Source: Phyllobates terribilis | Lineage: Eukaryota | Length of the DNA stretch: 64,000 bases | NCBI RefSeq assembly: GCF_046119375.1 | Contig: NW_027362769.1 | Coordinates: 365,862,001 to 365,926,000, forward strand | Reading direction: 5' to 3' | Shown here: positions 34,405-64,000 of the stretch, piece after piece | Layout of the letters: every line of letters starts with the position of its first letter | Numbering within the stretch: position 1 is the first letter of the stretch | Program-made: the position numbers and the translations under genes | The notes under the pieces: model-generated | Database searches by the model: none | What the model was told of the DNA's origin: nothing | What the model saw: only the letters and a program-made list of their open reading frames with translations

Positions 34405-34422
34405 TGGCGTAGTCGGCAGGAT
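34405..34422 (+). promoter_or_regulatory. PBS (tRNA-Ser) of A1
   Basis: TGGCGTAGTCGGCAGGAT begins after a 4-nt spacer (ACTT) following the LTR's terminal CA. Confidence 0.88.
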
Positions 34423-34862
34423 CACGTGCCCGCAACCACCGGGTACTGCGTGCCTGAAAAGCAAAGACTGTTCAAACTTACCAGTGGTGAAGATTCCCGC
34501 CATCGGTGAAGATTCCCGCCATCCGGCGCCATCTTCAGCCTTCTTCCCGCCATCGGTGAAGTTTCCCGCCATCCGGCGCCATCTTCAGCCTTCTTCCCGC
34601 CATCCGTGGAGTTTTCCCGCCATTGGACGCCATCTTGAGGACGCCGCGCGGGAAGAAGAGGGGCGTGGACTCCGAAAGCGCGCGAGAACTGAAGCCCCGC
34701 CTCACGTCCGGACGTTGCGTAAGGTCCTGGAAGGAGCCCAGCAGACGCCGACGTCACAGGAGCGCGACGGAAGGTCCTCAACCCTGACGATCCACTGCGG
34801 AGCCGCGGCCTACGGAAGAGGATCATCGCAAGGTAGGCCACGGTCCACTAGGGGGGAGGAAG

Positions 34863-35843: not shown

Positions 35844-35877
35844 AGGGCCAACCCCCAGGAAAAAGATCACCAGGCCC
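35819..35877 (+). promoter_or_regulatory. -1 ribosomal frameshift signal (slippery heptamer plus predicted pseudoknot)
   Basis: T TTA AAC in the gag frame; stem CCTGGGG/CCCCAGG; loop GGGCC pairs with downstream GGCCC; pol lies in the -1 frame and is open from the slip site. Confidence 0.85.
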
Positions 35878-35899
35878 ATCGAACTGGCGCGACAGATAT

Positions 35900-41282: not shown

Positions 41283-42240
41283 ACCGTGTAACGGGTCTGG
41301 GAGGTGGAACCTCTGAGCAACTATACAAAGGGGCAGTCCTTGTAAGGAAGCGGGTGGCTCCCAGGGAAGGCGGGCAGGTAGTCACGGCAAGTGACAGGGA
41401 CAGTCTCTGGGTAGAAGGGCAGCAAGTCACGGCAAGTGACGGGGACAGTCTCTTGACAGGCGGATGGTCACGGCAAGTGACAGCAGGGTAAGAGTCTCTA
41501 GACGGGCAGGTGGTCACGGCAAGTGACAGCAGGGAAAGAGTCTCTAGATAGGCTAGCAGGCAGGTAGCAGGTGAGCGCTCCCAGGTGAGCGGGCAAGAGT
41601 CTCTGGACAGGCAGGTGGTCACGGCAAGTGACGGCAGAGCCTCCAGGTAGGCTAGCAGGCAGGTAGCAGGTGAGCGCTCCCAGGTGAGCGGGCAAGAGTC
41701 TCTGGACAGGCAGGTGGTCACAGCAAGTGACGGCTAAGTCTCCAGGTAGGCTAGCAGGCAGGTAGCAGGTGAGCGCTCCCAGGTGAGCGAGTAAGAGTCT
41801 CTGGACAGGCAGGTGGTCACAGCAAGTGACGGCTAAGCCTCCAGGTAGGCTAGCAGGCAGGTAGCAGGTGAGCGCTCCCAGGTGAGCGAGTAAGAGTCTC
41901 TGGACAGGCAGGCAGGTATCAGGCAGGTATCTGGTGGGTACTTCCTGGTCCGCAGGCGGACTGATCCATAGACAGACTGGCAGGTGCTGGTAGGCAGACT
42001 GTCGGACCACAGGATAGCAAGCAGGTAAGCAGATATCAGGCAGGAATCAGGCAGGTATCAAGCAGGAATCTGGCAGGTGACTGGCAGGTAACTGGTAACG
42101 GGACCTGAGGGCTGAAGCAGAGTTGAAAGGCTTTGCAACAACATTGCTCGGGCACCTCCATTTTGGAGGAGGTGCCTTATATATGGTGAGGTCCTCCGGC
42201 CATTGGCCGGGGACTCCTTAGGACGACGCGCGCGGCCCCT

Positions 42241-45200
42241 TTAAGAGAGGGGGAGCCCGCGCGCCCTAAGCACAGAGGCCGGGAAGCAGCGCGCGCTGCC
42301 AGCAGAGCGGGAGGAAGACGCCGGGCCCGGAGCAGAGAGGTGAGGGGAACGGCGTCCCTGCCTAGCAGGAGGCAGGGACGCCGACGCTACAGTACCCCCC
42401 CCTTTAGGCCCCCCTTTTTTTAGGCCGGAGAGAAATTTATCAAGGATGAGAGGGGCATGGATGTTCTCCCGGGGCTCCCATGTTCTCTCCTCAGGACCAA
42501 ACACCTTCCAATCCACTAGAAAAAAGGATTTTCCTCTTACCCTTTTGGTGGCCAGAATGTTCTCTACCTCAAACTCATTTTCAGCGGAAACCGGAGCAGG
42601 AGGCGTACCTGTAGACTTGGAAAAAGAGTTAAGTATCACGGGTTTGAGTAGAGATACATGGAAGGAGTTAGGGATCCGCAAATTGGCCGGGAGTTTCAAT
42701 TTATAGGCCACCGGATTGATCTGTTTGATAACTTCCAGTGGACCGATGAACCGAGGCCCTAACTTGTAGGAAGGAATCTTGAGCCGGACATATTTGGACG
42801 AGAGCCAGACCTTATCTCCAGGACGGAATTGTGGTGGATCCAGACGTCTTTTGTCAGCCTGTTTTTTCATCCGCTCGGATGACTGAAGAAGTGCAGATCT
42901 GGTACTTTCCCAAATGGAGGAAAATTCGTTAACGAGAGATTCCGCAGCCGGATTGTCCACCGAAGCGGAGACGGGAAACGGGATCCGAGGATGCTGACCG
43001 AAGACTACAAAAAACGGGGATTTGGAGGAAGATTCGCTCTCGTGATTATTGTAAGAAAATTCGGCCCACGGTAAAAGATCCACCCAGTCGGGTTGGTGAG
43101 CATTAACAAAGTGCCGGAGGTAACTGGTTAAAATTTGGTTGATCCGTTCTACTTGGCCATTGGACTGTGGGTGAAAAGCAGAAGAAAAGTCCAAGGTGAC
43201 CCCCAGCAGTTTACACATGGCTCGCCAAAAACGAGAGGTGAACTGAACCCCTCGGTCGGATACAATGTGGAGATGAAGACCATGAAGACGGAAGACATGA
43301 TGAATCAAGTCTTTAGCTAACTCTGATGCAGACGGGAGACCCGGCAGGGGAATAAAGTGAGCCATTTTGGAAAAGCGGTCAGCGACCACCCATATGACCG
43401 TACAACCGGCAGAGCCAGGGAGGTCCGTAATAAAGTCCATAGCTATATGCTGCCACGAGGCAGCAGGTACAGGAAGAGGAAGGAGACGGCCGGCTGGCAG
43501 ATGTCTCGGAACCTTGTTGCGGGCGCAGGACACACAGGCTGAAACAAAGTCTATTTCGTCATTGTGCAGGGTAGGCCACCAGTAATGCCGGGAAATAAGC
43601 TGGAGGGTCTTTTTCTGACCAGCATGGCCAGCTAGCTTGTACGAGTGTCCCCAGTGTAGAACCCTCTCACGATCAGGAACAGATACGAACGTCTTATCGG
43701 GTGGAAGACGATTTAGATTCACGGGGGCCACCTGCATTACTTTGGCGGGGTCGATGATGTGTTTAGGCTCCTCCTCAAGATCAGAGACCAAAAGGATCGG
43801 GATAAAGCATCAGCTTTGATGTTTTTGTCAGCCGAGCGAAAATGAAGAATGAAATTAAAGCGGGTGAAGAACAAGGACCACCGGGCTTGGCGCGGGTTAA
43901 GTCTCTGGGCACTCTGGAGGTAAGCCAAGTTCTTGTGGTCCGTGTAAATTATTACCGGGTGAAGAGCCCCCTCGAGCAGGTAACGCCACTCCTCCAGTGC
44001 CAGCTTAATGGCCAACAATTCTCGGTCTCCTATAGAATAATTGCGCTCAGAAGAGGAGAAGAGTTTGGAGAAGAAGCCGCAGGTTACCATTCTTCCGGAA
44101 GACGACTTTTGGGTAAGTACTGCTCTGGCTCCGGAGGAGGAAACGTCGACTTCTAGAAAGAATTGTTTGTTGCCGTCCGGACAATGCAGCACAGGGGCGG
44201 AGGAAAAAGCTCGTTTTAAGGAAAGGAAGGCCTCCTCTGCTTCGGGCGGCCATTCTCTGGGATTAGCGCCCTTACGGGTGAGCGCCGAGATAGGGGCAGT
44301 CCGGGAAGAGAAGTGCGGAATGAAGAGGCGGTAGTAGTTGGCGAAGCCCAGGAACCGCTGAATAGCCTTCAACCCCTCTGGTCGGGGCCACTTCTGGATG
44401 GCAGACAGTTTCTCAGGGTCCATTTGTAGGCCGGTCTGAGAGATTATGTAGCCCAGAAACGGAAGCGAGGTCTGCTCAAAGAGGCACTTCTCATATTTAG
44501 CATAGAGGTGGTTCTGCCTGAGCCTGAGCAGGACCTGACGAACGTCCCTCCGGTGAGTGAGAAGATCTGGAGAGAAGACCAAGATGTTGTCCAGGTACAC
44601 CACCACGCAGGAGTAGAGAAGGTCACAGAAGATGTCATTGACCAACTCTTGAAAGACGGCGGGAGCATTACAGAGACCGAAGGGCATTAAAAGGTATTCA
44701 TATTGGCCATCCCGGGTGTTGAATGGCGTCTTCCATTCATCCCCCTGACGGATACGGACCAGATTATACGCCCCACGGAGGTCCAGCTTGGTGAAGATTC
44801 TAGCCCCCCTCAGACGGTCAAATAATTCAGGAATGAGCGGAAGGGGGTATTTATTCTTCACTGTGATCTGGTTAAGGCCTCTATAGTCTATACAGGGACG
44901 GAGTGAGCCGTCCTTCTTCTTGACGAAGAAGAAGCCTGCTCCCGCCGGGGAGGTAGATTTCCGGATAAATCCCCGGGCCAGATTCTCCTCAATATATTCA
45001 GACATGGACCGGGTCTCAGCAGCGGACAAAGGGTAAATACGCCCACGGGGAGGAGTAGCGCCGGGCATCAGGTCAATTGGGCAGTCGTATGGTCTATGAG
45101 GGGGTAATGTCTCTGCTTCTCTTTTATTAAAGACGTCCGCAAAAGACCAATAGGGAACCGGTAGGCCGGGTAGATTGGCTGGGGTAGGAGAAGGATGGGC

Positions 45201-45590
45201 AGGATGAACGGGAACTAAACAAGTCTTATGGCAGTCCTGTCCCCAGCGAAGAACTTCTCCGGTCTGCCAATCAAGCACGGGTGCGTGTTTCTGGAGCCAA
45301 GGTAGGCCTAGCAAGAGGGCGTGAGAGAGTCCAGGCAGAACATGAAAGAAGATGCTCTCAGAGTGCAGCATTCCCACCTGCAAAGTTATGGATTCGGTGA
45401 TGAGTTGGATGGGATGAGGTAAGAGGCCTCCATCCACGGCGGCGACAGATAAGGGTACAGCCAGAGGTTTGGTGGGAATGCGGTATTTCTCTACCAGGGA
45501 CTGAGAAATGAGATTTCCGGCAGCTCCAGAGTCAAATTGAGTCAGTTCAAAATAACGGTTCTCCCCGCAGATGATAGAGACCGACAGCAT
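42241..45590 (-). pseudogene. pol: Element B pol (PR-RT-RH, then IN plus chromodomain), frameshifted
   Basis: FDSGAAG, LDLRGAYNL, YLDN (YLDD altered), YTDHKNL, AMDF/SDRG, EFEVENIL...LVDWKVFGPEERTWEP; frame break near 43740-43790. Confidence 0.88.
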
Positions 45591-45658
45591 TAGAGATGGA
45601 GAGGGTTTATTTCTGTCTAGGGCGACCTCTCAGAGCGACCCTAGACAAAGGCGTTTCC

Positions 45659-46591
45659 CTACCTCTCCTGGAAGGAACGGATCCGGTGCTCCTTATTGCC
45701 ACAGTAGAAGCAGCTCCCCTCGGCACGGCGTAATTCTTGACGGGTCTTGACCATCTTGGTCTGGTCGACCTGCATAGGCTCGGGTGAGTGCGCCGGGGGA
45801 GTAACGGAGGAAGTGACGGATCTCTGGAAGGTAGGGGCAAGGCGTGGAAACCTCCTCTCACGGGTGGCCTCTTTGGTGCGCTCCTGGAACCGGATGTCAA
45901 TCCGGGTGACAAGTGTAATTAAGTCGTCAAGAGTGGTAGGAATGTCCCGACCGGCGAGTTCATCTTTAATACGGCCGGACAGACCCTCCCAGAAGACGGA
46001 CACCAGAGCGTCGTTATCCCAGGCAAGCTCCGAAGCAAGGGTACGGAACCGTATGGCATATTGACCCACGGTGAGACTTCCTTGGCGGAGGCGTAGCAGA
46101 GATGAGGCGGATGAGGTCCTCCATCCTGGTTCGTCGAAGACCTTCCGGAAAGTCGTGAGAAAGGATGGCAGGTTGGATACCAGGGGGTCTCCTCTCTCCC
46201 ATAGAGGATTTAACCAAGCCAGCGCCTCTCCCGTGAGATGGGACATGATGAAGGCTACTTTGGCTCGGTCGGTGGAAAACTGGTGTGCCAACAGTTCGAA
46301 GTGCAGAGTGCACAGGTTAATGAAGCCCCGTGCCTGTCCGGGATCTCGTCCAAAACGAGGCGGCGCGGTGAGGCGAGGACCGGGAAGAGTTGCCATGGAA
46401 TTGATGGGCAGCGGCACTGCCGGGGTAGGAGTCGTGGGACTGGAAGCAGGTCCCGAAGAGGTAGTCAGTGTGTCCAGGCGGGAGTTAACACTACGCAGGT
46501 GGCTCAGGATGGACTCCTGTTGGGACCTCTGACGGGAAAGTTCATGACATAGGTCCGAGAGCGAGGGAGCTTGGGTGCCACCGGGTTCCAT
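45659..46591 (-). CDS. gag: Element B Gag (retrotransposon gag domain; last knuckle Cys altered)
   Basis: AKVAFIMSHLTGEALAW, LRQGSLTVGQYAIRF, EPMQVD, CFYCGNKEHRIRSF. Confidence 0.85.
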   Translation of the reverse strand: MEPGGTQAPSLSDLCHELSRQRSQQESILSHLRSVNSRLDTLTTSSGPASSPTTPTPAVPLPINSMATLPGPRLTAPPRFGRDPGQARGFINLCTLHFELLAHQFSTDRAKVAFIMSHLTGEALAWLNPLWERGDPLVSNLPSFLTTFRKVFDEPGWRTSSASSLLRLRQGSLTVGQYAIRFRTLASELAWDNDALVSVFWEGLSGRIKDELAGRDIPTTLDDLITLVTRIDIRFQERTKEATRERRFPRLAPTFQRSVTSSVTPPAHSPEPMQVDQTKMVKTRQELRRAEGSCFYCGNKEHRIRSFQER

Positions 46592-49293
46592 GGCCCGAGC
46601 AAACTGTAACGGGTCTGAGAGGTGGAACCTCTGAGCAACTATACAAAGGGGCAGTCCTTGTAAGGAAGCGGGTGGCTCCCAGGGAAGGCGGGCAGGTAGT
46701 CACGGCAAGTGACAGGGACAGTCTCTGGGTAGAAGGGCAGGAAGTCACGGCAAGTGACGGGGACAGTCTCTTGACAGGCGGATGGTCACGGCAAGTGACA
46801 GCAGGGTAAGAGTCTCTAGATGGGCAGGTGGTCACGGCAAGTGACAGCAGGGAAAGAGTCTCTAGATAGGCTAGCAGGCAGTTAGCAGGTGAGCGCTCCC
46901 AGGTGAGCGGGCAAGAGTTTCTGGACAGGCAGGTGGTCACGGCAAGTGACAGCAGAGCCTCCAGGTAGGCTAGCAGGCAGGTAGCAGGTGAGCGCTCCCA
47001 GGTGAACGGGCAAGAGTCTCTGGACTGGCAGGTGGTCGCGGAAAGTGACGGCAGAGCCTCCAGGTAGGCTAGCAGGCAGGAAGCAGGTGAGCGCTTCCAG
47101 GTGAGCAGGCAAGAGTCTCTGGACAGGCAGGTGGTCACAGCAAGTGATGGCTAAGCCTCCAGGTAGGCTAGCAGGTAGATAGCAGGTAAGCGCTCCACAG
47201 GTGAGCGAGTAAGAGTCTCTGGACAGGCAGGTGGTCACAGCAAGTGACGGCTAAGCCTCCAGGTAGGCTAGCAGGCAGGTAGCAGGTGAGCGCTCCCAGG
47301 TGAGCGAGTAAGAGTCTCTGGACAGGCAGGCAGGTATCAGGCAGGTATCTGGTAGGTACTTCCTGGTCGCAGGTGGACTGATCCATAGACAGACTGGCAG
47401 GTGCTGGTAGGCAGACTGTCGGACCACAGGATAGCAAGCAGGTAAGCAGATATCTGGCAGGAATCAGGCAGGTATCAAGCGGGAATCTGGCAGGTGACTG
47501 GCAGGTAACTGGTAACGGGACCTGAGGGCTGAAGCAGAGTTGAAAGGCTTTGCAACAACATTGCTCGGGCACCTCCATTTTGGAGGAGGTGCCTTATATA
47601 TGGTGAGGTCCTCTGGCCATTGGCCGGGGACTCCTTAGGACGACGCGCGTGGCCCCTTTAAGAGAGGGGGAGCGCGCGCGCCCTAAGCACAGAGGCCGGG
47701 AAGCGCGCGCTGCCAGCAGAGCGGGAGGAAGACGCCGAGCCTGGAGCGGAGAGGTGAGGGGAACGGCGTCCCAGCCTAGCAGGAGGCAGGGACGCCGACG
47801 CTACATGTGGCACCCCAGGGGTCTGGTTACCACAGTAATAGCAATATTACGTCTGAGAGCAGGTGGGAGGTCTCCTGGTCAGGAACCCTAAGCATGCAAC
47901 ACTTCATGCCCAGTCCAGGGAGGGGAAGAACTTCCCCTATATAAACTGGGGCTGAGGCGGGGTTAGAGGAGAAGAAGAGGAGTCCCAGACAGAGACACAG
48001 TCTGGTCTGGAGTGGAGCAGATACAGAGAGAGCAAGATCAGGAGCTATGTGGGAGCAGTGATAAAAGGGGTCAGAGACTGGAAGCTGTAGAGCTCGTCCT
48101 GACTGAAGAGATCTCACCGGACACGGAGTCCGAGGCAGTGGGGACTGATCCATACCCAGCAGCAGAAACCGACCGGCAGGGGATTTCAGGTCCTCTGGCC
48201 AAGAAACCCGAAGGCACGGTCACACGCAAGGGACCAGCACCGCCGTTGTGGAGCGGAGGCTACCAGAAGGCCCCGAGTCACCGGCCATACGGGTGAGCAC
48301 CACCCGGTACACTCAGGGACGTGGGCTACTTTTACCCGCTTCTAGCAAGGTAGCCAGGGAGAGTACAATAAGTCGGGGAGGCCTACAACTCCGCCTGGCC
48401 GGGGGAGATTCTATCTGCTCACAGACTGACCAGGCCCCGATCGCTAGCCAGTACGCCTGGGAGGGTCTACCTTTGCCACCAGTAAAGACCCTGAACTACA
48501 CCGCACCGTCTCTGAGTGGTTCCTAGTGCCTGCGTGCAATTCTGCTATCCCCATCATCCACGTCCGCTGCCCTGAGGCCATACCCCTCCCGTTGGGGGTT
48601 ATACTATCCACGCTGCACAACCGTACCACCGGCCTCAGCGGTCTGCCCTGCAGCGGCGGCTTCATAACCGCATTCAACGGGTGGCGTAGTCGAACACTAT
48701 AACATCTTCTACTAAATTCTGCCACTTGGTTTGACACCCTGGGCACGGACCGGATCGTCGCCACGATGACTACTACCCCTATCAGATCCGGCTCCGGGTA
48801 GTCCCCGCGTGCGCAACGCTACACAACAGAGGCCCAGGGGGCGCTTCAACTTTGGCGTAGTCGGCAGGATCCGGTGCCCGCAACCACCGGGTACTGCGTG
48901 CCTGAAAAAAAAAGAGACTGTTAAACTTACCTGTGGTGAGGATTCCCGCCATCCGACGCCATCTTCTGCCTTCTTCCCGCCATCCGTGGAGTTTTCCCGC
49001 CATCCGACGCCATCTTCTGCCTTCTTCACGCCATCCGTGGAGTTTTCCCGCCATTGGACGCCATCTTGAGGACGCCGCGCGGGAAGAAGAGGGGCGTAGA
49101 CTCTGAAAGCGCGCGAGAACTGAAGCTCCGCCTCACGTCCGGACGTTGCGTAAGGTCCTGGAAGGAGCCCAGCAGACGCCGACGTCACAGGAGCGCGACG
49201 GAAGGTCCTCAACCCTGACGCTCCACTGCGGAGCCGCGGCCTACGGAAGAGGATCATCGCAAGGTAGGCCACGGTCCACTAGGGGGGAGGAGG

Positions 49294-50250
49294 ATGTCGG
49301 ATACAGAGGAGAGCTTCACTGCCACAGCCACCGCCAGCGCCACCGCTGCTGCGGTCATGCCTTTCACTATGCCCTATATCCCGGGGGCAGCCTGGCTACC
49401 CCAGTACTCAGGGGAGTCACATACCCTAAATGACTTCAGAGAAAGGCTGGATAGCCTCTTCCAGGTGTACCCCCTCACAGAGGAGCAAAAAGTGAGCATC
49501 CTGGTGGCTCAATTAAAAGGGGCAGCCCAAAGGGAGGTAAAGTCCTGGCCACTCGGGAGGAGGAGGACTGTCGCAGAGATACTAGCCCAGCTGAAGGACA
49601 CCTTTGATACCCGTACCTCAGCCGAGATCAAGCTTAGATTCTACGGGTGCAAGCAGCGAGCACATGAGAATATAAGGGACTATGCACTAAACCTACAAGA
49701 GGCCCTGAGAGCCATTAAGCAGGCCGACCCTGACGGCGTGGGAAACGAAGACAAGCTGTTGACTGAACAATTTATAGAGGGTCTACATTGCAATGCCCAC
49801 CGAACCCAGTTGCGGGCAATGGCCTTACAGGACCCTCATCTGGACTTTGCACAGTTCAAGGACAGAGCCATCCGGGTGCTCCGAGAACCGGCACCAGGTG
49901 GCGCTGTGACCCACAGACGCCCTACTACCACTTACCACCAGGAGACGGCGCCCTTGTCGGCAGGGCCTGTGGGAGCTGATGCGCAGGCTTTAAACAATGA
50001 CCCGGCTACAGACCTGCACCATCAGGTCCAAGAGCTAACTAAAAGCGTTGCTGCGCTAACCCGAACTGTGCAGTCTTTACAGGTTTCTACTCCAGGGAAG
50101 ATCCAGCTGGCATCCGGACCGGAGGATATCCCGTGGCGCCGACCAAGGAGGACCCCACCGGCCAGAGGAAAACCCAGCGACCGATACAACGAGGACGGAC
50201 AACCCATCTGCCACCGCTGCAATCAACCCGGACATATGGCAAGGTACTGT
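49294..50250 (+). pseudogene. gag: A2 gag, interrupted at its 3' end by element C
   Basis: Homologous to A1 gag through CHRCNQPGHMARYC; continues at 55228. Confidence 0.9.
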
Positions 50251-53200
50251 TGTTAGAACCTTGCTCTTAGGTTTTTTTTCCTTTGCTGGTCACATGACCT
50301 TGTTGGCCTATTTAATCCTGCTCCGCCCTTCTGGCTTTGCTGGACTTCATTGTATATCTACTTTCTAGCTAGCCTGTGCTCTGTGTCTTGCTCTGTTAGT
50401 TTGCTTGGTCTACTGACCTCTATGTTCTATATATTTTGTTTGTTCGTCTGTCTGCTACTATTTCTGTTAGGAGGTGTCCCATATTCCTCCCAGTCCTTAG
50501 TACTTGTAGGGATTCCTTCCCCACATCTATAGGTCTCCGTACAGACTAGCTTAGGACTTTAGCAGGTCTGATCGCAGGATCAGGTCCCCTGTTACATCGT
50601 AGGGATTAAGCTGAGTTCTATCGTAGGGACAGATCTCCTCTCTTTCCTTAGCTCTGGTAGCAGAACATAACAGTAAGTCCAGCCAGCAAATTCTCTAAGG
50701 AAAGATTTTTCTGTTCCATCATGGTGTCGGTTCAGGATTTGGTTCATCGCCTGCAGGGACTCTCTCTGGAGGTGGCCGAGCTCCGTCAGCACGTGAGTAA
50801 CTGTCCTGGAGCACATTTCTTGGAGCCTAAGGTATGTTTGCCGGATTTATTTTTTGGTGAACACCGAGAATTTTTTTCATTTAAAAATGCTTGCTTATTG
50901 TATTTTCGTTTGAGACCTAAGTCCTCTGGGGATGAATCCCAGCGCGTAGGGTTCATAATGTCACTTTTGCGCAAAGAGCCTCAGGAGTGGGCCTTTTCTT
51001 TGCAACCTAGTGATACATGCTTCAGATCAGTGGATAGTTTTTTTTCTGCTTTGGGACTATTATATGATGATCCTGACCGTGTCGCATCAGCTGAGACTGA
51101 GTTGAGACGTTTAAAACAGGGATCAGGTAATGTGGAAAAATATTGTACTCATTTCCGTCGTTGGTCTACTCAAACAGGGTGGAACGATTCTGCTCTGAAA
51201 AGTCTATTTCTTGCTGGGCTCAGTGAAAGGGTTAAAGACCTGCTAATTGCTTATCCTACACCTGAAGATTTGCAACAGGCTATGCAATTAGCTATACGGG
51301 TGGATAGAAGACTGCGTGCAAGGGTTAATGAGAGCAGATCCTCTGCTATGTCAGTTTCTGGTTATGAGAATGTGTGTACTAACAGAGGTGAACCGATGGA
51401 GATTGGATCGGTGGCACCTCGCTCTCAAGAAAAAGACCGTCGATTTTCTGAAGGCTTGTGTTTCTATTGCGGAAAATCTGGTCATTTGATTAAAGGCTGT
51501 GAGCTTCGTATGAGGAAAGAAAAAAAAATGGTCAGTCATGCCCGTATTGCCTGTTTAAATTCCAAGGGTATATTTTTAGCTGCTTCCACGATTGCTCAGA
51601 AAAAATTATTGGAATTTCGGGTGTTTGTTGATTGCGGGTCTACTCTGAATGTAATTGATGGGGGATTCGTGGAAAGACTCAATTTAAAACCTGAACCTTT
51701 ATCATCCCCCATTGCTGTGGTTTCTGTGGATGGTTCCCCTTTGAAGAATATTACTCTCAAGGTCTGTGAATTTCCTCTCACTATTAATGGTGTTCACCAT
51801 GAGAAATTGGATTTGGTAGTGTTGAATAACTTGCCTTCTCCAGTAATATTGGGATTGCCCTGGTTAAAATTTCACAATCCTGTACTGGATTGGTCTACCA
51901 GTGAAATTAAATCCTGGAGCCATAAATGTTATGACAAGTGTTGTAACGGGCGTATTGCAGCTTTGGATAGGGGAGAATTGCCTGTTCCTATTCAGGATTT
52001 TTGGAGAGTTTTTTCTGAGAAGGAATCGCAGGTTTTGCCTCCCCATAGAGACTATGATTGTTCTATTGAATTTGTCCCTGGAGCGACTCTTCCTAAAAGT
52101 CGTTTATTTAACCTTACTATTCCTGAGAGGAAGGCTTTGGAGGAATACATACAGACAAGTTTGGTCGCCGGTCACATTAGGCCCTCTAAGTCTCCTGTGG
52201 CGGTTGGATTTTTTTTTGTAAAAAAAAAGGACGGCGGTTTACGTCCTTGTCTGGATTTTCGTGAGATTAACAAAATTACTGTACGCAATCCTTACCCACT
52301 GCCATTGATTCCTGATCTGTTTAACCAGTTAATGGGGGCCAAGTGGTTCTCTAAAATTGACCTTAAGGGGGCATACAATCTGTTGCGCATGAAGGAGGGT
52401 GACGAATGGAAGACTGCTTTTAACACTCCTGTGGGTCATTTTGAGAATCTGGTTATGCCTTTTGGTCTTACTAATGCTCCTGCATTTTTTCAGAATCTGA
52501 TTAATGACATCCTTAGACCTTTGATCGGCAAAAATGTGGTTGTGTATTTGGATGACATTTTGATTTATTCGCCGGATCTGGAGTCTCATTGGCGGAGCGT
52601 GCGAGAGGTATTACAGTTATTAATGGACAATTCGCTTTTTGCTAAGCTGGAGAAATGTGAGTTCGCTGTACAGAGAATTAGTTTTTTGGGCTACATTATC
52701 TCCAGCAAAGGTTTTGAGATGGATCCGGTTAAGGTTCAGGCTGTGCAGGAATGGCCTAGGCCTATTGGTTTGAAATCGATACAGAGGTTTTTGGGTTTCG
52801 CCAATTACTACAGAAAATTCATAAAAAAATTTTCTAGTATTGTCAAACCTCTGACTGATCTCACCAGGAAAGGTGCTGATGCGGTTCAGTGATCTTCTGA
52901 GGCCATTGAAGCTTTTGTGTATCTCAAGGAGAGGTTCACCTCTGCTCCCATCCTTATGCAGCCTGATGTTACTAGGCCGTTTTTGGTTGAGGTTGATGCT
53001 TCCTCTGTGGGGGTTGGCGCAGTATTGTCTCAGGATAACGGGGATGGATTACATCCCTGTGCTTTTTTTTCAAAAAATTTTTCGGAGACTGAACTGAATT
53101 ACGATATTGGTAATCGGGAATTATTGGCTATTAAACTCGCATTTGAACACTGGCGCCACTTCTTGGAAGGTGCGGAATTTCCCGTTCAGGTTCTTACGGA

Positions 53201-55222
53201 TCATAAAAATCTCATATATCTTGATGCTGCCAAGCGCCTGAATGCCCGTCAGGCTAGGTGGGCACTGTTTTTCTCGCGGTTTAATTTCTCCGTTACTTAC
53301 ATCCCTGGTACTAAGAATGTTAAGGCGGATGCCTTGTCTCGCAGTTTTTCTCCCATAGTCGGTGCTGAGAAAGAGGAGAACATTTTACAAGAAGGTGTTG
53401 TGATAGCTGCTTTGGACTCCGTTTTGGAAAATTAGATTCTTAAAGCACAGGAGAATGCCCCTTCTAACACTCCTCATGGGAGGTTGTTTGTGCCTGGGAC
53501 CTTTAGGAGAGATTTGTTTGTTGAGTGTCACGAATCTCGGTTGGCAGGTCATCCCGGAATATCTGAGACCAAGAGACTGGTGGGTCGCAGTTTTTGGTGG
53601 CCTGGATGGCAGAAGGAAGTCATTAAGTGGGTGCGTCAATGTACTATATGTGCTAGATCTAAGTCCTCACATACTCCTGCTGCGGGGTTGCTTTGTCCTT
53701 TGGAGGTTCCCAGTGCTCCTTGGACACATTTGGCTATGGACTTTATAACTGACCTTCCCCCCTCTGAGGGTTTTACTGTCATCTGGGTGGTCGTGGACCG
53801 TTTTAGCAAGATGTGTCACTTGGTTCCTTTCGTCAAACTGCCCTGCGCTAAAACTCTCGCTAAGGCCTTTGTCAAGGAAATTGTCAGACTTCATGGCGTT
53901 CCTACTGACATTGTTTCTGATAGGGGTCCTCAGTTCGTGGCTCGTTTTTGGCGTGCCTTTTGTGATAGGTTGGGAGTTCATTTGTCGTTCTCGTCCGGAT
54001 ATCATCCTGAATCTAATGGCCAGACAGAAAGGAAAAACCAGGATGTTGAGCAGTTCTTGCGTTGTTTTGTGGCAGACAATCAAGAGGGGTGGTCTGAGTT
54101 TCTGCCACTTGCTGAATTTGCTCTGAACAATCATACATCTTCTTCTGCTGGTTGTTCGCCTTTTTTTTGTTGTTCTGGGAGACATCCGTCGTTTGGGTCG
54201 TTCTCCAAGTTGGGATCTGCCGTGCCTGAGGAGGAGAATTTTTCCGGTGATTTGGAGAGAGTTTGGACGGATGTGCGTGGTAATCTTCAGGAGGCCAACA
54301 GAAAATCTAAAGACTACTTTGATAGGAAACGACAGGAGGTTTTGTTCGCTGTTGGTGACATGGTTTGGTTGTCCTCTAGGAATCTGCGGTTGAGGATTCC
54401 TTCTAAGAAATTGGGTCCCAAGTTTGTAGGGCCCTTTAAGGTGCTTCAGGTTGTCAACCAATCTGCTGTTAGGTTGGAGGTTCCTACCTCCTGGAAAATT
54501 AATCCGGTATTTCATGTCTCTCTGTTGAAAAAAGCTGTTGTATCGGATTGTGACGCCTCTGCCTCTGTTCCTCCGGTGGTGGAGGACGGGGAATATGAAA
54601 TTTCTCGCATCCTTAACTCTAGACGGTATAGAGGTAGTTTGCAGTATCTTGTGGCCTGGAAAGGTTTCGGTCCCGAGGATAACTCTTGGGTGAGGTCGGA
54701 TGATGTTTCCGCGTCCAGACTTATCAGAGCGTTTCACAGGAGATTTCCTGATAAGCCTGGTCCTAGGGGATCCGGAGGATCCTCTTAGAAGGGGGGGTAC
54801 TGTTAGAACCTTGCTCTTAGGTTTTTTTTCCTTTGCTGGTCACATGACCTTGTTGGCCTATTTAATCCTGCTCCGCCCTTCTGGCTTTGCTGGACTTCAT
54901 TGTATATCTACTTTCTAGCTAGCCTGTGCTCTGTGTCTTGCTCTGTTAGTTTGCTTGGTCTACTGACCTCTATGTTCTATATATTTTGTTTGTTCGTCTG
55001 TCTGCTACTATTTCTGTTAGGAGGTGTCCCATATTCCTCCCAGTCCTTAGTACTTGTAGGGATTCCTTCCCCACATCTATAGGTCTCCGTACAGACTAGC
55101 TTAGGACTTTAGCAGGTCTGATCGCAGGATCAGGTCCCCTGTTACATCGTAGGGATTAAGCTGAGTTCTCTCGTAGGGACAGATCTCCTCTCTTTCCTTA
55201 GCTCTGGTAGCAGAACATAACA
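50251..55222 (+). mobile_element. Chromovirus-type Gypsy element C
   Basis: 422-bp LTRs (50251-50672 and 54801-55222) with one difference seen; 5-bp TSD ACTGT; PPT AGAAGGGGGGGTAC. Confidence 0.96.
50721..54788 (+). pseudogene. Element C single gag-pol ORF with two in-frame stops and a C-terminal chromodomain
   Basis: Three ORFs in one frame, split by TGA (52890-52892) and TAG (53433-53435); CFYCGKSGH, VDCGS, YLDD, EYEISRIL...YLVAWKGFGPEDNSW. Confidence 0.92.
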
Positions 55223-55227
55223 ACTGT

Positions 55228-58200
55228 CCTTTAAACTGGCACAACCTGGGGTAGAGGGCCAACCCCTAGGAATAAGATCACCAGGCCCATCGAACTGGCG
55301 TGACAAATACGTGGGAGGACGTCCAGTCTTGCCTGTGGTACTGGATGGCATTCCTATGAGTGCCCTACTGGACACCGGGTCACAGGTCACCACCATCCCG
55401 TACGTGCTCTTCAAGCAGTACTGGAATGACTCGGATATAACCCGCTACCCTGACGACGACTTGAGTATCATCGCCAGCAATGGTCAGCCCGTGCCACAGA
55501 TCGGATTTAAAGAGGTGACCATTAAAATCGGTAAAGTCGAACTGGCAGCACAGGGACTGATCATTGTGGACATTGACAAGCGCGAGAGTCACCCAAAGAT
55601 AACTCTAGGAACTAATGTGATTGAAAATTGTCTTGCAGAGGTGATTCTCATTTTACAGCAGGTTGCCAAGAACGCCAGTTCCGGCCAGCAGCGAGTGCTC
55701 CAAAAAGAGATCCGGGCACTGATGCGACGGCAACAGGTGGAACTCTCCGGTGGTGAGATTGGTAGCGTGAGAATGTGTGACCCTTTCCCTATTGCCATGC
55801 CCCCGAAAAGTGAAATGATCATTTGGTGCCGGGCAGCTATTGGTCTGAGAGGTAGAGATTACCAGGCAATGGTGGAACCAGTCTACTCAGACAGTAGGCC
55901 CACCATTTTGACAGCACGGGGGGTGGTCGATGTACGCCATGGGAGGGTGCCCGTTCGCATCATAAATATCGGGGAGAGAGAAGTACACCTGCCCCGGTAT
56001 GCCACGCTAGCCAAATTGTTCACCATAAACCAGAATTCTGTACAGGCCGTGGAACCCTTGCCTCCATCTCAACCAGAGGAAGGTAACGGCTCTAAGCAAC
56101 AAATGGAGGACTGGTGTCAGCAACTACATTTGGGTACTGACTCCACTCCCTCACACCAGAAACAGGGAGTCTATCGGGTGGTTCAAGAGTACGAGAGAGT
56201 GTTTAGTAAACACCCGTTAGACTTCGGGCGAGTAAAGGGGGTAGAACACCACATCCCCACGGGAGACCATCCTCCCATAAAGGAGAGATACCGACCCGTA
56301 CCCCCTGCACACTACCAACACGCCAAGGGGATGCTTAGAGACATGAAGGAGGCTGGGGTAATCAGGGATAGCTGTAGCCCTTGGGCAGCTCCACTAGTCT
56401 TGGTTAAAAAAAAAGACAACACCATGAGAATGTGTGTGGACTACCGGAAAATCAACCGTATCACACACAAAGATGCGTACCCCTTACCAAGGATAGAGGA
56501 GTCTTTGGCTGCTTTAAAATCTGCTAACTTCTTCTCCACTTTGGATCTCACTAGCGGTTACTGGCAGGTTCCTGTAGCAGAGGCGTGAGAAGACCGCATT
56601 CACCACCCCGATGGGACTTAGCGAGTTTACCTGCATGCCGTTCGGACTCTGCAACGCACCAGGAACCTTCCAACGATTGATGGAATGCTGTCTGGGACAC
56701 CGGAACTTTGAGACGGTCCTGCTGTACCTGGACGATGTTATAGTTTATTCCAAAACCTACGAGGACCACCTGAAACACCTGGCGGAAGTGTTTGAAGCCC
56801 TGGCAAACTACGGTCTGAAGGTGAAACCGTCGAAGTGTCACCTGCTAAAACCAAAAGTGCAGTACCTGGGACACGTGGTGAGTGCTGACGGAGTGGCTCC
56901 CGACCCTGATAAGATCACCGCGGTTAAGGAATGGCCAAGACCCTCTAGCGTAAGGGAAGTACGGCAGTTCCTCGGGTTGGTAGGCTACTACCGAAGATTC
57001 ATTCCTGGTTTCACCAAAAAGGCAGCTCCTATGCAGGACCTCCTGATAGGCCAGTCCAGGAAGGCCAAGAACCAGAAGCCGCCCTTCAGATGGGAGAAGC
57101 TGGAAGAAGAGTCCTTCCGCCAGCTGAAGATGGCCTTCACGGGGGATGAAATCCTGGCATACCCTGATTGTGCCCTGATGGGCACACATAAATTGGCCAA
57201 ATTATGCGCAAAAAAACTTCATTTTTCAAAATGACATTAGTCTAGATACAATATTTCTTATATTTTCATGTATGGAGTGCCGAAGTTCTTTTTGCTATTG
57301 AGATTACTCTTTTCTTCAGAACACCCGAATAGACCAGTGAGCGACCCCTCTCTTTTTTCTATTAATCATTTTTGGGATCCCGCTCCTGGAGCATTGCAGC
57401 AGGTACGTGTTCACACTATTAGAAGTTTGACAGCCTTTTTTCTGACCATGTGTCCCTCCCATTCAGTCACAGGTGGTTTTAACTAGCTCTACCAGCCCAT
57501 ACATTGTAGGTTAAAAGCCCAAGCAGAGACATATTGTCCATACAGGCTTACAGCCCAAGAGTGGCATATCCAGTGGTAGCATAGCGTAGTTTCCCATCAT
57601 ACGAAGGTGACCTTGTCGTGGTTGATGGGCACACATAAATTGGCCAAATTATGCGCAAAAAACCTTCATTTTTCAAAATGACATTAGTCTAGATACAATA
57701 TTTCTTATATTTTCATGTATGGAGTGCCGAAGTTCTTTTTGCTATTGAGATTACTCTTTTCTTCAGAGCACCCGAATAGACCAGTGAGCGACCCCTCTCT
57801 TTTTTCTATTAATCATTTTTGGGATCCCGCTCCTGGAGCATTGCAGCAGGTACGTGTTCACACTATTAGAAGTTTGACAGCCTTTTTCTGACCATGTGTC
57901 CCTCCCATTCAGTCACAGGTGGTTTTAACTAGCTCTACCAGCCCATACATTGTAGGTTAAAAGCCCAAGCAGAGACATATTGTCCATACAGGCTTACAGC
58001 CCAAGAGTGGCATATCCAGTGGTAGCATAGCGTAGTTTCCCATCATACGAAGGTGACCTTGTCGTGGTTGATGGGCACACATAAATTGGCCAAATTATGC
58101 GCAAAAAACCTTCATTTTTCAAAATGACATTAGTCTAGATACAATATTTCTTATATTTTCATGTATGGAGTGCCGAAGTTCTTTTTGCTATTGAGATTAC

Positions 58201-61200
58201 TCTTTTCTTCAGAGCACCCGAATAGACCAGTGAGCGAGCCCTCTCTTTTTTCTATTAATCATTTTTGGGATCCCGCTCCTGGAGCATTGCAGCAGGTACG
58301 TGTTCACACTATTAGAAGTTTGACAGCCTTTTTTCTGACCATGTGTCCCTCCCATTCAGTCACAGGTGGTTTTAACTAGCTCTACCAGCCCATACATTGT
58401 AGGTTAAAAGCCCAAGCAGAGACATATTGTCCATACAGGCTTACAGCCCAAGAGTGGCATATCCAGTGATAGCATAGCATAGTTTCCCATCATACGAAGG
58501 TGACCTTGTCATGGTTGATGGGCACACATAAATTGGCCAAATTATGCGCAAAAAACCTTCATTTTTCAAAATGACATTAGTCTAGATACAATATTTCTTA
58601 TATTTTCATGTATGGAGTGCCGAAGTTCTTTTTGCTATTGAGATTACTCTTTTCTTCAGAGCACCCGAATAGACCAGTGAGCGACCCCTCTCTTTTTTCT
58701 ATTAATCATTTTTGGGATCCCGTTCCTGGAGCATTGCAGCAGGTACGTGTTCACACTATTAGAAGTTTGACAGCCTTTTTTCTGACCATGTGTCCCTCCC
58801 ATTCAGTCACAGGTGGTTTTAACTAGCTCTACCAGCCCATACATTGTAGGTTAAAAGCCCAAGCAGAGACATATTGTCCATACAGGCTTACAGCCCAAGA
58901 GTGGCATATCCAGTGGTAGCATAGCGTAGTTTCCCATCATACGAAGGTGACCTTGTCATGGTTGATGGGCACACATAAATTGGCCAAATTATGCGCAAAA
59001 AACCTTCATTTTTCAAAATGACATTAGTCTAGATACAATATTTCTTATATTTTCATGTATGGAGTGCCGAAGTTCTTTTTGCTATTGAGATTACTCTTTT
59101 CTTCAGAGCACCCGAATAGACCAGTGAGCGACCCCTCTCTTTTTTCTATTAATCATTTTTGGGATCCCGCTCCTGGAGCATTGCAGCAGGTACGTGTTCA
59201 CACTATTAGAAGTTTGACAGCCTTTTTTCTGACCATGTGTCCCTCCCATTCAGTCACAGGTGGTTTTAACTAGCTCTACCAGCCCATACATTGTAGGTTA
59301 AAAGCCCAAGCAGAGACATATTGTCCATACAGGCTTACAGCCCAAGAGTGGCATATCCAGTGGTAGCATAGCGTAGTTTCCCATCATACGAAGGTGACCT
59401 TGTCATGGTTGATGGGCACACATAAATTGGCCAAATTATGCGCAAAAAACCTTCATTTTTCAAAATGACATTAGTCTAGATACAATATTTCTTATATTTT
59501 CATGTATGGAGTGCCGAAGTTCTTTTTGCTATTGAGATTACTCTTTTCTTCAGAGCACCCGAATAGACCAGTGAGCGACCCCTCTCTTTTTTCTATTAAT
59601 CATTTTTGGGATCCCGCTCCTGGAGCATTGCAGCAGGTACGTGTTCACACTATTAGAAGTTTGACAGCCTTTTTTCTGACCATGTGTCCCTCCCATTCAG
59701 TCACAGGTGGTTTTAACTAGCTCTACCAGCCCATACATTGTAGGTTAAAAGCCCAAGCAGAGACATATTGTCCATACAGGCTTACAGCCCAAGAGTGGCA
59801 TATCCAGTGGTAGCATAGCGTAGTTTCCCATCATACGAAGGTGACCTTGTCGTGGTTGATGGGCACACATAAATTGGCCAAATTATGCGCAAAAAACCTT
59901 CATTTTTCAAAATGACATTAGTCTAGATACAATATTTCTTATATTTTCATGTATGGAGTGCCGAAGTTCTTTTTGCTATTGAGATTACTCTTTTCTTCAG
60001 AGCACCCGAATAGACCAGTGAGCGACCCCTCTCTTTTTTCTATTAATCATTTTTGGGATCCCGTTCCTGGAGCATTGCAGCAGGTACGTGTTCACACTAT
60101 TAGAATTTTGACAGCCTTTTTTCTGACCATGTGTCCCTCCCATTCAGTCACAGGTGGTTTTAACTAGCTCTACCAGCCCATACATTGTAGGTTAAAAGCC
60201 CAAGCAGAGACATATTGTCCATACAGGCTTACAGCCCAAGAGTGGCATATCCAGTGGTAGCATAGCGTAGTTTCCCATCATACGAAGGTGACCTTGTCGT
60301 GGTTGATGGGCACACATAAATTGGCCAAATTATGCGCAAAAAACCTTCATTTTTCAAAATGACATTAGTCTAGATACAATATTTCTTATATTTTCATGTA
60401 TGGAGTGCCGAAGTTCTTTTTGCTATTGAGATTACTCTTTTCTTCAGAGCACCCGAATAGACCAGTGAGCGACCCCTCTCTTTTTTCTATTAATCATTTT
60501 TGGGATCCCGCTCCTGGAGCATTGCAGCAGGTACGTGTTCACACTATTAGAAGTTTGACAGCCTTTTTTCTGACCATGTGTCCCTCCCATTCAGTCACAG
60601 GTGGTTTTAACTAGCTCTACCAGCCCATACATTGTAGGTTAAAAGCCCAAGCAGAGACATATTGTCCATACAGGCTTACAGCCCAAGAGTGGCATATCCA
60701 GTGGTAGCATAGCGTAGTTTCCCATCATACGAAGGTGACCTTGTCGTGGTTGATGGGCACACATAAATTGGCCAAATTATGCGCAAAAAACCTTCATTTT
60801 TCAAAATTACATTAGTCTAGATACAATATTTCTTATATTTTCATGTATGGAGTGCCGAAGTTCTTTTTGCTATTGATACCCTGATTACAGCCAGCCCTTT
60901 ATCCTCTACACCGACGCAAGTAACATCGGGCTAGGAGCCGTACTGTCCCAGATCCAGCAGGGGAGAGCACGGGTAATTGCTTATGCCAGCCGAAAACTGC
61001 GACCCACCGAAAGAAACCCTGAGAATTACAGCTCATTCAAGCTAGAGTTCCTGGCAGTGGTGTGGGCAGTCACCGAACGCTTTAAGCACTACCTCGCCTC
61101 TTCCCGGTTCACCGTGTACACGGATAACAACCCGTTGACACACCTGGACACTGCAAGACTCGGTGCCCTGGAGCAGAGATGGATGGCCCGCCTGTCCAAC

Positions 61201-63078
61201 TATGAATTCACGATCAAATACCGGGCAGGACGCTCCAATACCAACGCGGATGCCTTGTCCAGAATGCCAAACCTACCGGACGTAGGGGAAGATCCAGAGG
61301 AACTGGAAGAAGTTGAACTCCCCACGTTCCACCGTCATGGGACTACCCAGTATTCCCACCGTGTAAGGGGTAAGCAATCCGCTACGTTCAACCCCTTACC
61401 TCATTACAACTGGGCGGAAACGCAAGACAGTGACCCCGCCGTCCGACTGGTGAAGGAGATGCTGACTCAGCCAGATGCTCGCCTTGACCCAGACGCTCCG
61501 GAGGAAACCAAGCAACTGTGGGCTGAGAAGAGTCGACTGTTCCTTTACAAGGGGAAGTTGTGCCGTAGAATGGTTAACTCCCGGACGCATGAACTGATCT
61601 GGCAAGTAGTGGTGCCATGAAGAGACGCGGCTATGGTACTGGAGGCATACCACGACGGAGCTGGGCACTTCGGATGGAAGAAGCTGGAGTTCCTGCTGCG
61701 CGGGCGGTTCCACTGGGTAGGCATGAGAGGAACCATCGAGAGGTGGTGCAGAGACTGTGGCCCATGCAACCTAAGAAGGAAGGACCGTGCCAGTCAGAAG
61801 ACTCCCCTGCAGTCCATCGTCACCAGGCAGCCGTTGGAACTGGTAGCCTTGGATCATGTAAAACTGACCCCCAGCAGAAGTGGCTACGTCTATGCGTTAA
61901 CCATCGTGGATCACTACTCCCGGTTCTTGGTTGTAGTCCCCGTCAAGGACTTAACGGCTCAAACAGCAGCTAGAGCCTTTCAGCAGCACTTCTGCCGTCC
62001 ACACGGATACCCAGAGCAGGTGCTGACGGACCAGGGACCTGCCTTTGAAGCGGAAGTCTTCCAGGAGTTCTGCACTCTGTATGGCTGCCGGAAGATAAGA
62101 ACAACACCCTATCATCCGCAAACCAATGGACTCTGCGAGAAGATGAACCAGGTGGTGATAGACCTTCTGAAAACGTTGCCCCTGGAAGAACGCAGTCTGT
62201 GGCCTGAGAAACTGCCTGATCTGGTGGACCTATACAACCACATCCCTGTAGGTTCTACCAACTGTACCCCGGCTTACCTAATGAGAGCTAGACCTGGTAA
62301 GCTGCCTGTTGATCTGGATATGGGAGTCCTGACACCCGAGGACACTTCACCAGAAGCAGACTGGGACACAGAGAGGCAGCAGCAGTACCGGAAAGTACAG
62401 GAGAGCGTTGAGCGAAGTCTCTATCAAGCAAGAGAAAGACAGGAGAAGACTTACAACCAGTATGCTCCCGCTGTTCCCCTGGTACCTGGAGAGCAGGTCT
62501 TGAAAAGGAAGAGACGGCTCCACAAGTTGGACGACCAGTGGGAGAAGGACCCGTACACCGTACTGCCATCAAGCCATGAAAACCCAAAAATCTGCACAAT
62601 CAGTAAGGATGGAGGAGAAACCAAAGCCATTGTCTCCCGAGATCACCTGAAGAAGTGTCCCGAGCAGCTACGAAACCCTGAAGAAGATCAAGAAAACCCT
62701 CGATCCGCAGAGGAAAGGGAAGAAATGGTCAGTACTGTACTCGGAGACTTCCCTCGGTCTTGGACACAAGTAAATGGCGCTGTTGTGGTACCCGTCCTCA
62801 CCTTCCTCCAGCCAGCATCCCAAGTGCCTACGGAAAAACAGGTAGAGCTGGAAGAGCAGCCGGTCCAGGAGGCAGAAGACCCCACACAAGCAGACCAGGA
62901 GAATCGACCCTCTGCTTATAGTGAGCCTGCCGTGCCCCTAGTGAGCCAAAGAACCCGTAGACAGCTGCCCAGCTTACCTTTGACAGCTCCTACACCCTGT
63001 AGCTTAGGACCGGTCAGTAAGCTCCGTAGGTCTACTAGGGCCACTAGAGGCCAGTTGCCAGTACGTTGGAGGATCTAA
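55228..63078 (+). pseudogene. pol: A2 pol, inactivated
   Basis: Small frameshifting deletion near 56585, tandem-array insertion at 57170-60875, and CGA>TGA at 61618-61620 relative to A1. Confidence 0.92.
57170..60875. repeat. 447-bp tandem array (8 full units plus 125 bp) inserted into A2 pol
   Basis: Unit starts at 57176, 57623 ... 60751; near-identical copies; flanked by duplicated ATACCCTGATT. Confidence 0.97.
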
Positions 63079-63442
63079 AGTGTTCAGACTGTTTTATTGG
63101 TATATACCTGTTTACTGTTGCTTGTAAATAATTATGTTTTTCCAGTTATTTTATAGGTGTCTTTTGTGGATTAACCGGAATTCTTTGTATATATGTTTGG
63201 AGCGTAACCCAGGAATGGACTAAGACTGCTAAAGACTCGGGGTAGGACAGATCCCCACCTGGTTACGGCTCCCTGTTCTTTGGTGAAATGGACACCCTTA
63301 TTGCTTCAAAAACTGCACCCGGTTGCGGACACGCTGTGACCGCCCTAACGTGTTTTCCCTTATTGTATTGTTCCTGTTTATACCCTGTTATGTTTTCAAA
63401 AATATGTTTAGTCCCGGAGTACTAAATTTTACTAGGGGGGAA

Positions 63443-64000
63443 TGTGGCACCCCAGGAGTCTGGTTACCACAGTAATAGCAATATTACGTCTGAGAGCAGG
63501 TGGGAGGTCTCCTGGTTAGGAACCCTAAGCATGCAACACTTCCTGCCCAGTCCTGGGAGGGGAAGAACTTCCCCTATATAAACTGGGGCTGAGGCGGGGT
63601 TAGAGGAGAAGAAGAGGAGTCCCAGACAGAGACACAGTCTGGTCTGGAGTGGAGCAGATACAGAGAGAGCAAGATCAGGAGCTATGTGGGAGCAGTGATA
63701 AAAGGGGTCAGAGACTGGAAGCTGTAGAGCTCGTCCTGACTGAAGAGATCTCACCGGACACGGAGTCCGAGGCAGTGGGGACTGATCCATACCCAGCAGC
63801 AGAAACCGACCGGCAGGGGATTTCAGGTCCTCTGGCCAAGAAACCCGAAGGCACGGTCACACGCAAGGGACCAGCACCGCCGTTGTGGAGCGGAGGCTAC
63901 CAGAAGGCCCCGAGTCACCGGCCATACGGGTGAGCACCACAGGGTACACTCAGGGACGTGGGCTACTTTTACCCGCTTCTAGCAAGGTAGCCAGGGAGAG
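63443..64000 (+). repeat. A2 3' LTR (partial)
   Basis: Matches 47806 onward with about six substitutions seen in 558 bp. Confidence 0.93.

Follow-up and report, generated by a model that had tools for sequence, protein, structure and literature searches.

The stretch of Phyllobates terribilis DNA analysed here (the window, 64,000 nucleotides; C9:365,862,001-365,926,000 of a 10.6-Gb genome) contains a Gypsy-type long terminal repeat (LTR) retrotransposon whose pol gene is broken twice, by a nested Gypsy element at 50251-55222 and by a tandem array of 447-bp units, and it is this array and the family to which it belongs that we describe (Table 1). According to an analysis with Tandem Repeats Finder, the array has a period of 447 bp and 8.3 copies with 99% matches; its units start at 57176, 57623, 58069, 58516, 58963, 59410, 59857, 60304 and 60751, and 14 columns vary between them. 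The Gypsy reverse transcriptase (RT) lies directly upstream (RVT_1, 56578-57168) and the RNase H downstream (60877-61617). The sequence ATACCCTGATT occurs exactly twice in the whole window, once at each end of the array, and forms a target site duplication (TSD) of 11 bp. The last base of the array coincides with the first A of the right copy, a microhomology of 1 nt. At the left junction a 6-nt filler, GTGCCC, separates the TSD from the first unit; it is the reverse complement of unit bases 5-10, was missed by the original prediction, and is likely an aborted second arm or a fold-back at the 5' junction. The longest stop-free frame of the array is 81 amino acids, and a poly(A) tail, AATAAA and terminal inverted repeats were looked for in it and are absent. 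The original prediction of an 8.3 x 447-bp block with an 11-bp duplication, which interrupts the pol of an LTR element and carries neither inverted termini, poly(A) nor a credible open reading frame (ORF), was thus correct.

Table 1. Features of the 447-bp tandem array and its surroundings in the window
Feature	Position	Strand	Remark
Host Gypsy-type LTR retrotransposon	47805..64000	+	LTRs at 47805-48848 and from 63442 to 485 bases beyond the window end
Left TSD copy, 11 bp	57159..57169	+	exact repeat
6-nt filler, inverted unit bases 5-10	57170..57175	-	forms a 7-bp hairpin with its neighbours; putative role
Single-armed insertion of the 447-bp tandem retroelement, 8.3 units	57176..60876	+	5' end at phase 1, 3' end at phase 126 (short class)
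HDV-like fold, copy 1 (G25)	57593..57667	+	predicted
HDV-like fold, copy 2 (G25)	58039..58113	+	predicted
HDV-like fold, copy 3 (G25A)	58486..58560	+	predicted
HDV-like fold, copy 4 (G25A)	58933..59007	+	predicted
HDV-like fold, copy 5 (G25A)	59380..59454	+	predicted
HDV-like fold, copy 6 (G25)	59827..59901	+	predicted
HDV-like fold, copy 7 (G25)	60274..60348	+	predicted
HDV-like fold, copy 8 (G25)	60721..60795	+	predicted
Long 3' end site, phase ~175-190, behind a T run (example in unit 8)	60478..60494	+	other insertions end here
Short 3' end site, phase ~113-126, behind a T run	60863..60876	+	end used by the window array; putative RT start
Right TSD copy	60876..60886	+	exact repeat
HDV, hepatitis delta virus.

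Misassembly of the array is unlikely, because the two junctions recur, identical in every base, at six other places on this chromosome, which have single-nucleotide differences of their own. Among the matches listed from four DNA runs no piece bridges the left junction; a further 3,259 matches stand outside those listed, and the result has no bearing either way.

A DNA search with the unit returned 287 matches at 99-100% identity from 40 of 442 scored candidates, lying in short arrays on 12 of the contigs C1-C13 and C75. An exact two-anchor pattern found 4,542 copies genome-wide (control, 0); the first 100 rows correspond to about 37 sites, which extrapolates very roughly to 1,700. For comparison we used 39 other sites from the DNA search, a set skewed to young multi-unit arrays, and 20 stretches chosen among those first 100 rows. 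Subfamilies measure 446-460 bp and are 92-100% identical, and sister families have a period of about 430-440 bp and an identity of 60-70%. The block in the window represents a single insertion of a non-coding 447-base repeat that has inserted at many dispersed places. The unit defines an independent family of mobile elements, rather than being a fragment of satellite or extrachromosomal circular DNA (eccDNA) that was moved. Sister-family ends (L162-L201) are often followed by (TA)n or (TATC)n, which the 447 family does not show. One insertion (L055:3765-4450 and from 5617) is flanked by an apparent duplication of about 690 bp and by no short one. The unit is also present in runs X11, X12 and X15, labelled as two other organisms, and the family may be common to related species.

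The anatomy of the insertions was tabulated for 55 independent cases, with the six paralogous copies of the window insertion and L145 (the second half of L144) excluded. Of the 87 3' ends on the + strand of the unit, 81 belong to one of two intervals, phase 98-147 (with a peak at 123-126) and phase 172-202 (with a peak at 185-189), here called short and long; these intervals, fixed after the data had been seen, both lie directly behind a T run and together make up 18% of the unit (P 1e-52). The 90 5' ends are scattered evenly over the unit. Two outward-pointing inverted arms are present in 32 insertions, and the other 23 are single-armed. Among the two-armed insertions, 26 combine a short with a long end, one has two short ends, none has two long ends and five have an end elsewhere; the pairing of one short with one long end thus holds for 26 of the 27 that can be scored. 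The TSD length follows the class. Of 28 two-armed insertions, 24 have 14-16 bp; the six short-only insertions with a TSD (the class of the window array) all have 9-12 bp; and five of six long-only insertions have 14-15 bp. Overall, a TSD of at least 9 bp was recovered in 40 of the 55 (median 15; two 28-bp matches sit in tandem targets) and was not recoverable in 15. Target and unit overlap by about 1 base on average, and none of the 55 carries poly(A) at its ends. The long site occurs in all units of the window array. Integration of a multimer at a staggered break, as originally proposed, is supported.

The units of an insertion also often share private variants: 10 of 35 multi-unit insertions have a private variant in all units, as with C24T in all nine full units, on both arms, of L250 (similarly L031, L067, L153, L157 and L251). 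Homogeneous units on both arms are compatible with a monomer-circle template, and they fit a linear transcript of a homogenised array as well. Alternating G/A patterns were considered as a sign of dimer circles and rejected; the periodicity is confined to one arm, and later block duplications fit better.

Which enzyme could produce such insertions? For insertions of Penelope-like elements (PLEs), an inverted and 5'-truncated copy has been described together with a tail confined to one end, a pattern foreign to the target-primed reverse transcription of long interspersed elements (LINEs) (Craig et al., PMC8557442); the same anatomy was described with 8-10-bp duplications (Arkhipova et al., PMC3846280), and two internal start sites were reported to define the PLE tail, with both strands cut and extended and a dimer predicted (Frangieh et al., PMC11167929). 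The fixed paired ends, one-end tail and inverted truncated arms of the 447 family match this published anatomy and argue for PLE-type mobilisation. The family shares with PLEs 5' truncation, an inverted 5' copy, a tail at one end, a TSD of variable length and the absence of poly(A). PLEs with a GIY-YIG endonuclease are present in the genome, and one autonomous family has two inverted insertions with the tail on one arm only and a 14-bp TSD (two of eight spans tested; no TSD in the six others). We take this family, from its motifs, to be Neptune-like. The ends of autonomous PLEs in this genome (L105:8480-8530, L203:5380-5430, L236, L243 and L249) carry, by eye, hammerhead variants with U at core position 3. 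In addition, in two of about 35 distinct sister-family loci (L202 and L203) the truncated 5' end immediately adjoins a PLE RT frame, in a head-to-head arrangement in one case and through a same-strand jump in the other. T>C and A>G make up 53 of 59 and 45 of 47 listed places in two runs that we guess to be RNA, compared with 8 of 21 in a DNA run, as would be expected from adenosine-to-inosine editing of double-stranded RNA from inverted arms. None of the listed runs that contain the unit is on record as RNA, and a raw RNA run from another organism yielded 0 reads.

Several results count against a PLE as the driver. The L202 and L203 chimeras have no recoverable TSD, apparently owing to later insertions, and the 55 tabulated insertions of the 447 family show no PLE junction. 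By BLAST and a covariance model, no autonomous PLE sharing the unit sequence was found in 70 loci (50 of the 63 with GIY-YIG and 20 of the 46 that match one PLE 3' end); the best outside match of the covariance model had an E value of 0.024 (L107). Resemblance of the unit to the tail of Neptune family A is colinear and weak, being equalled by 4-11 of 300 shuffles. At L141, a spacing of 3.4 kb was considered as an ORF-bearing copy and proved to be a local duplication.

We regard it as very probable that the family is a tandem retroelement mobilised in the manner of PLEs, and we put a probability of roughly 0.8 on the reading as a whole: a dispersed tandem element, copied from RNA and integrated by a PLE (likely of the Neptune clade), in which a predicted HDV-like fold replaces the hammerhead. 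Under this model, the RT and GIY-YIG endonuclease of a PLE would copy and integrate the unit RNA, with the dimeric enzyme cutting both target strands about 15 bp apart and each cut priming internally on the RNA, one at phase ~124 and the other at ~187. In the window, the short-site arm alone would have been completed, and about 4 target bases lost on the other side. More tentatively, slow self-cleavage and ligation might yield a monomer circle that is copied round and round.

The predicted fold spans the unit junction, which is the best-kept part of the unit in comparison with two sister families (79% and 87% identity inside, 60% and 56% outside). Its layout comprises P1 of 7 bp, J1/2 of 3 nt, P2 of 6 bp, P3 of 3 bp, a 7-nt L3 with U20 and G25, P1.1 of 2 bp, P4 of 10 bp with two mismatches, and C-A-A-A. 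In the first copy, P1 would pair 57593-57599 with 57623-57629 and P2 would pair 57603-57608 with 57662-57667; G25 lies at 57618, the equivalent of C75 at 57656, P1.1 is UG/CA and the +1 residue is C. A descriptor of HDV ribozymes matched this place only, on the + strand only; of 1,500 shuffles it matched none when applied at full stringency and 9 when applied loosely. In 18 copies, 92.9% of the cells pair, compared with 35-42% in slid controls. U20, G25, C75 and A78 are all present in 20 of 20 sense-strand sister copies, a set partly selected by this core, and a single real pair series, A-U to G-U to G-C in P2, runs over three families. Sister families have a GTAAGT splice-donor-like motif directly behind the fold, where the 447 family has none.

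Several observations weigh against the fold, or against its activity. The descriptor had been relaxed at +1 and P1.1 once the fold was known, and it missed both single sister units tried. Covariation is no better than in shuffles (127 of 500), with no pair changed on both sides relative to the commonest pair; many core columns are fixed by the search pattern; and 18 P1-mutant copies contain no compensatory P1 change. The +1 residue is C in every family (C1-G37) where a purine is expected, and P1.1 is UG/CA, still Watson-Crick and not made of C-G pairs. HDV-like ribozymes are described as requiring a purine at +1 (PMC11331408, PMC8495972), and both C1-G37 and P1.1 UG/CA depart from the published descriptor (PMC6326823); fast natural HDV-like ribozymes are reported to vary in P1.1, including U:A (PMC13635239). 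Rfam, run at E 10 on the array and six sister loci, returned no ribozyme, only chance hairpin matches. Depletion of donor-level changes in the fold, which occupies 15% of the length, is weak (2 of 34, P 0.09). There is no pile-up of 5' ends at the predicted cut, phase 418, the nearest lying at 412, 412 and 419. The minimum-energy fold retains P2, not P1 or P3, and the whole unit folds no better than shuffles on either strand (z 1.07 and -0.65). As for a hammerhead, the + strand of the unit contains no GAAA and no YUGANRA, the - strand contains CUGAAGA without stem II, and Rfam gave no match; a decayed hammerhead at phase 441-60 was considered and discarded for want of GAAA. On balance we consider the fold probably real, and its catalytic activity somewhat doubtful. 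We would describe it as HDV-like in topology, and do not file it as a proven HDV-like ribozyme.

Changes at the CpG that holds G25 are asymmetric. Exact counts in the 447 family gave 4,444 intact copies, 732 with G>A and 72 with C>T (5,248 copies); G>A at G25 is thus about tenfold as frequent as C>T at the other base of the CpG. In a sister family the first 100 of 526 rows comprise 78 intact, 19 G>A and 3 C>T. The other eight CpGs of the unit show symmetric, rare changes (7 and 9 in 170 units). G25A occurs in 14% of units, including three of the eight folds in the window, and is scattered within arrays. It is fixed in no multi-unit insertion examined (L144 comes closest, at five of six), and the neighbouring C24T is fixed in one. 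For known HDV ribozymes, G25A is reported to weaken or abolish cleavage (PMC13635239, PMC3774820). The excess could come from RT error at a structured G, from deamination of cDNA or from enrichment of uncut templates.

The strongest competing explanation, to which we give slightly less than even odds, accepts mobilisation by a PLE and holds that the tandem parasite is copied from long linear transcripts, the HDV-like fold being a dead relic or a non-cutting structure for RNA stability or protein binding. The C at +1 and the inverted P1.1 favour it, as does the lack of 5' ends at the predicted cut site. Among published systems, insertion by PAc in vitro was reported not to need hammerhead cleavage (PMC11167929), eight of nine Xenopus retrozymes tested failed to cleave (bioRxiv 10.64898/2026.07.22.740005), and PLEs that are non-autonomous, without a hammerhead and with head-to-tail copies are described for MRC1 (PMC8557442). 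A dead fold is harder to reconcile with its intactness across families about 60% alike elsewhere, and with the pattern of G25A, common among units and fixed in none of the multi-unit insertions listed. The most elaborate version of the PLE model, an active delta-type retrozyme, appears unlikely to us as it stands: a PLE-parasitic circular RNA in which the hammerhead would have been swapped for an HDV-like ribozyme with a pyrimidine at +1, copied round the circle by a dimeric PLE enzyme that begins from each of its two cuts, at two fixed start sites, with an RT-error hot spot at G25.

In a second explanation, which we consider improbable, a LINE of the L1/Tx1, RTE or CR1/L2 type would copy the tandem transcript, with the inverted arms being ordinary twin priming. 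HDV-like ribozymes are indeed known at the 5' ends of R2, L1Tc, RTE and baggins elements, and L1 has duplications of about 15 bp and 5' inversions. The 447-family ends have neither a poly(A) nor a simple-repeat tail, and the targets show no T-rich motif. Twin priming gives a variable second site, whereas here the ends of both arms are fixed and complementary in class (26 of 27), and the RT joined to sister-family ends is that of a PLE. The original prediction had named a LINE or a PLE as possible copier of a tandem transcript; the insertion anatomy supports the PLE, and the LINE is disfavoured by the lack of poly(A) and of a fixed single end.

Capture of rolling-circle eccDNA or a satellite fragment at a double-strand break, also part of the original prediction, would account for near-identical units, a non-integer unit count and filler at one junction, and it is very hard to sustain against the two fixed end phases (81 of 87 ends in two intervals covering 18% of the unit, where random ends are expected), the strand polarity, paired arms and tight TSD length of the 55 insertions, and the lack of a long source array among the 40 scored candidates. 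A DNA transposon of the foldback or Helitron type with internal tandem repeats, suggested by the inverted arms of tandem units in 32 of 55, is just as implausible, since 23 of 55 insertions are single-armed, the two ends differ by about 62 nt and wobble by a few bases, TSDs measure 9-16 bp and Helitrons are not known to leave a duplication.

The surroundings of the array make it possible to order the events. The LTR pair of the host Gypsy element differs at 12 of 1,044 bases (1.15%), and the window units differ from the family majority by 0.34%. At six further places within C9:363.97-366.48 Mb the same two junctions recur with flanks 0.06-0.56% apart that extend past the host LTR; these are segmental duplicates, because the shared junctions and near-identical flanks reach past that LTR. 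The sequence of events is insertion of the host Gypsy element, insertion of the array and segmental duplication, in agreement with the original view that the array is younger than its host. The seven copies of the window insertion hold 5.3, 8.3, 8.3, 9.3, 12.3, 13.3 and 13.3 units, with internal duplications of 4- and 6-unit blocks visible, and the originally inserted size therefore cannot be read as 8.3 units. The original notion of a satellite array that moved as an 8.3-unit block is not supported, given this size range and the lack of a long source among the 40 scored candidates; of the proposed satellite seeding, local growth after insertion stands, and nothing beyond that growth was found. 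The seven copies show the speed at which such arrays change size.

Young segmental copies of the sequence surrounding the array number at least seven in C9:363.97-366.48 Mb (L032, L033 and L038-L041) and occur in both orientations. The nested Gypsy element has 422-bp LTRs differing at one base and is also present in the segmental copies. A related Gypsy copy at 33482-41241, 87-93% identical to the host, has an unbroken pol frame of 1,402 amino acids at 35747-39953, and another LTR element lies on the minus strand at about 41287-47330. An independent 447-unit insertion (L058:4631-5600) sits in the RT of another copy of the host-Gypsy family, about 390 bases upstream of the site used in the window. 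Inverted arms of about 2 kb (8296-11361 and 23818-25817, 84%) are made of 67-bp tandem units and enclose a LINE-like stretch at 19059-22995, possibly as a large element with terminal inverted repeats; the 67-bp repeat of these arms is the target of a 447-family insertion elsewhere (L043).

Whatever the ribozyme does, the 447 family is a large, clean record of PLE integration, and its strict pairing of short and long ends, together with the TSD lengths specific to the single-armed classes, yields predictions for an asymmetric dimer that go further than what was done with PAc in vitro. Should the fold cleave, the purine-at-+1 rule of HDV-like ribozymes would be broken and ribozyme classes would be interchangeable in genomic circle-forming parasites, an interchange raised in a discussion of deltavirus origins (PMC7761336). 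A delta-type retrozyme, if true, would connect retrozymes with ribozyme circles of the deltavirus type through an element encoded by the host. Retrozyme screens, as described, target hammerheads alone (bioRxiv 10.64898/2026.07.22.740005), and thousands of young copies with another ribozyme fold would be invisible to them for that reason. Our literature search gave no report of HDV-like ribozymes in tandem elements that are mobilised by PLEs, with subscription journals, Repbase and Dfam outside the search.

The closest known counterparts are the non-LTR retrozymes, whose defining feature is a type I hammerhead and which are thought of in the literature as parasites of PLEs (Cervera and de la Pena 2020, PMC7229834; Li, Clavereau, Pollet 2026, bioRxiv 10.64898/2026.07.22.740005; PMC7761336). 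The 447 family shares their dispersal, their non-coding tandem units of a few hundred bases and their target duplications. As in the metazoan members described in these sources, the non-coding tandem unit measures 150-450 bp and is low in GC, TSDs are long, arrays are mostly short, each unit has one (here predicted) ribozyme motif, a PLE is the proposed driver and amphibians are among the hosts. Unlike theirs, the motif would be an HDV-like fold, the sense strand has no hammerhead core, and no homology of the unit to a PLE pseudo-LTR (pLTR) was detected in the 70 PLE loci. The family may thus be classed as a variant of the non-LTR retrozyme in which a predicted HDV-like fold replaces the hammerhead. 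With endonuclease-containing (EN+) PLEs such as Neptune and Poseidon, as described in PMC8557442, PMC3846280 and PMC11167929, it has in common 5' truncation, an inverted 5' copy, a tail at one end, two internal starts and TSDs of 8-16 bp; it differs in having no ORF and a tail of about 62 nt, compared with 30-40 in those elements, whose pLTRs carry hammerheads. The non-autonomous Chlamys PLEs (MRC1) likewise insert as head-to-tail multicopies without a canonical hammerhead, but MRC1 is algal and shares 3' sequence with autonomous families, and no ribozyme fold is described for it in that account (PMC8557442). Finally, the HDV-like ribozymes of R2, L1Tc, RTE and CPEB3, in the accounts cited (PMC6765202, PMC3774820, PMC6326823, PMC13635239), resemble the predicted fold in P1 of 7, P2 of 6 and P3 of 3 bp, U20 and G25 in L3, a 2-bp P1.1, P4 and C-N-A-A in J4/2. 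They differ from it in having G1-Y37 in place of C1-G37 and P1.1 CC/GG in place of UG/CA, and in occurring once, at the 5' end, where the 447 fold is repeated in tandem in a non-coding unit.

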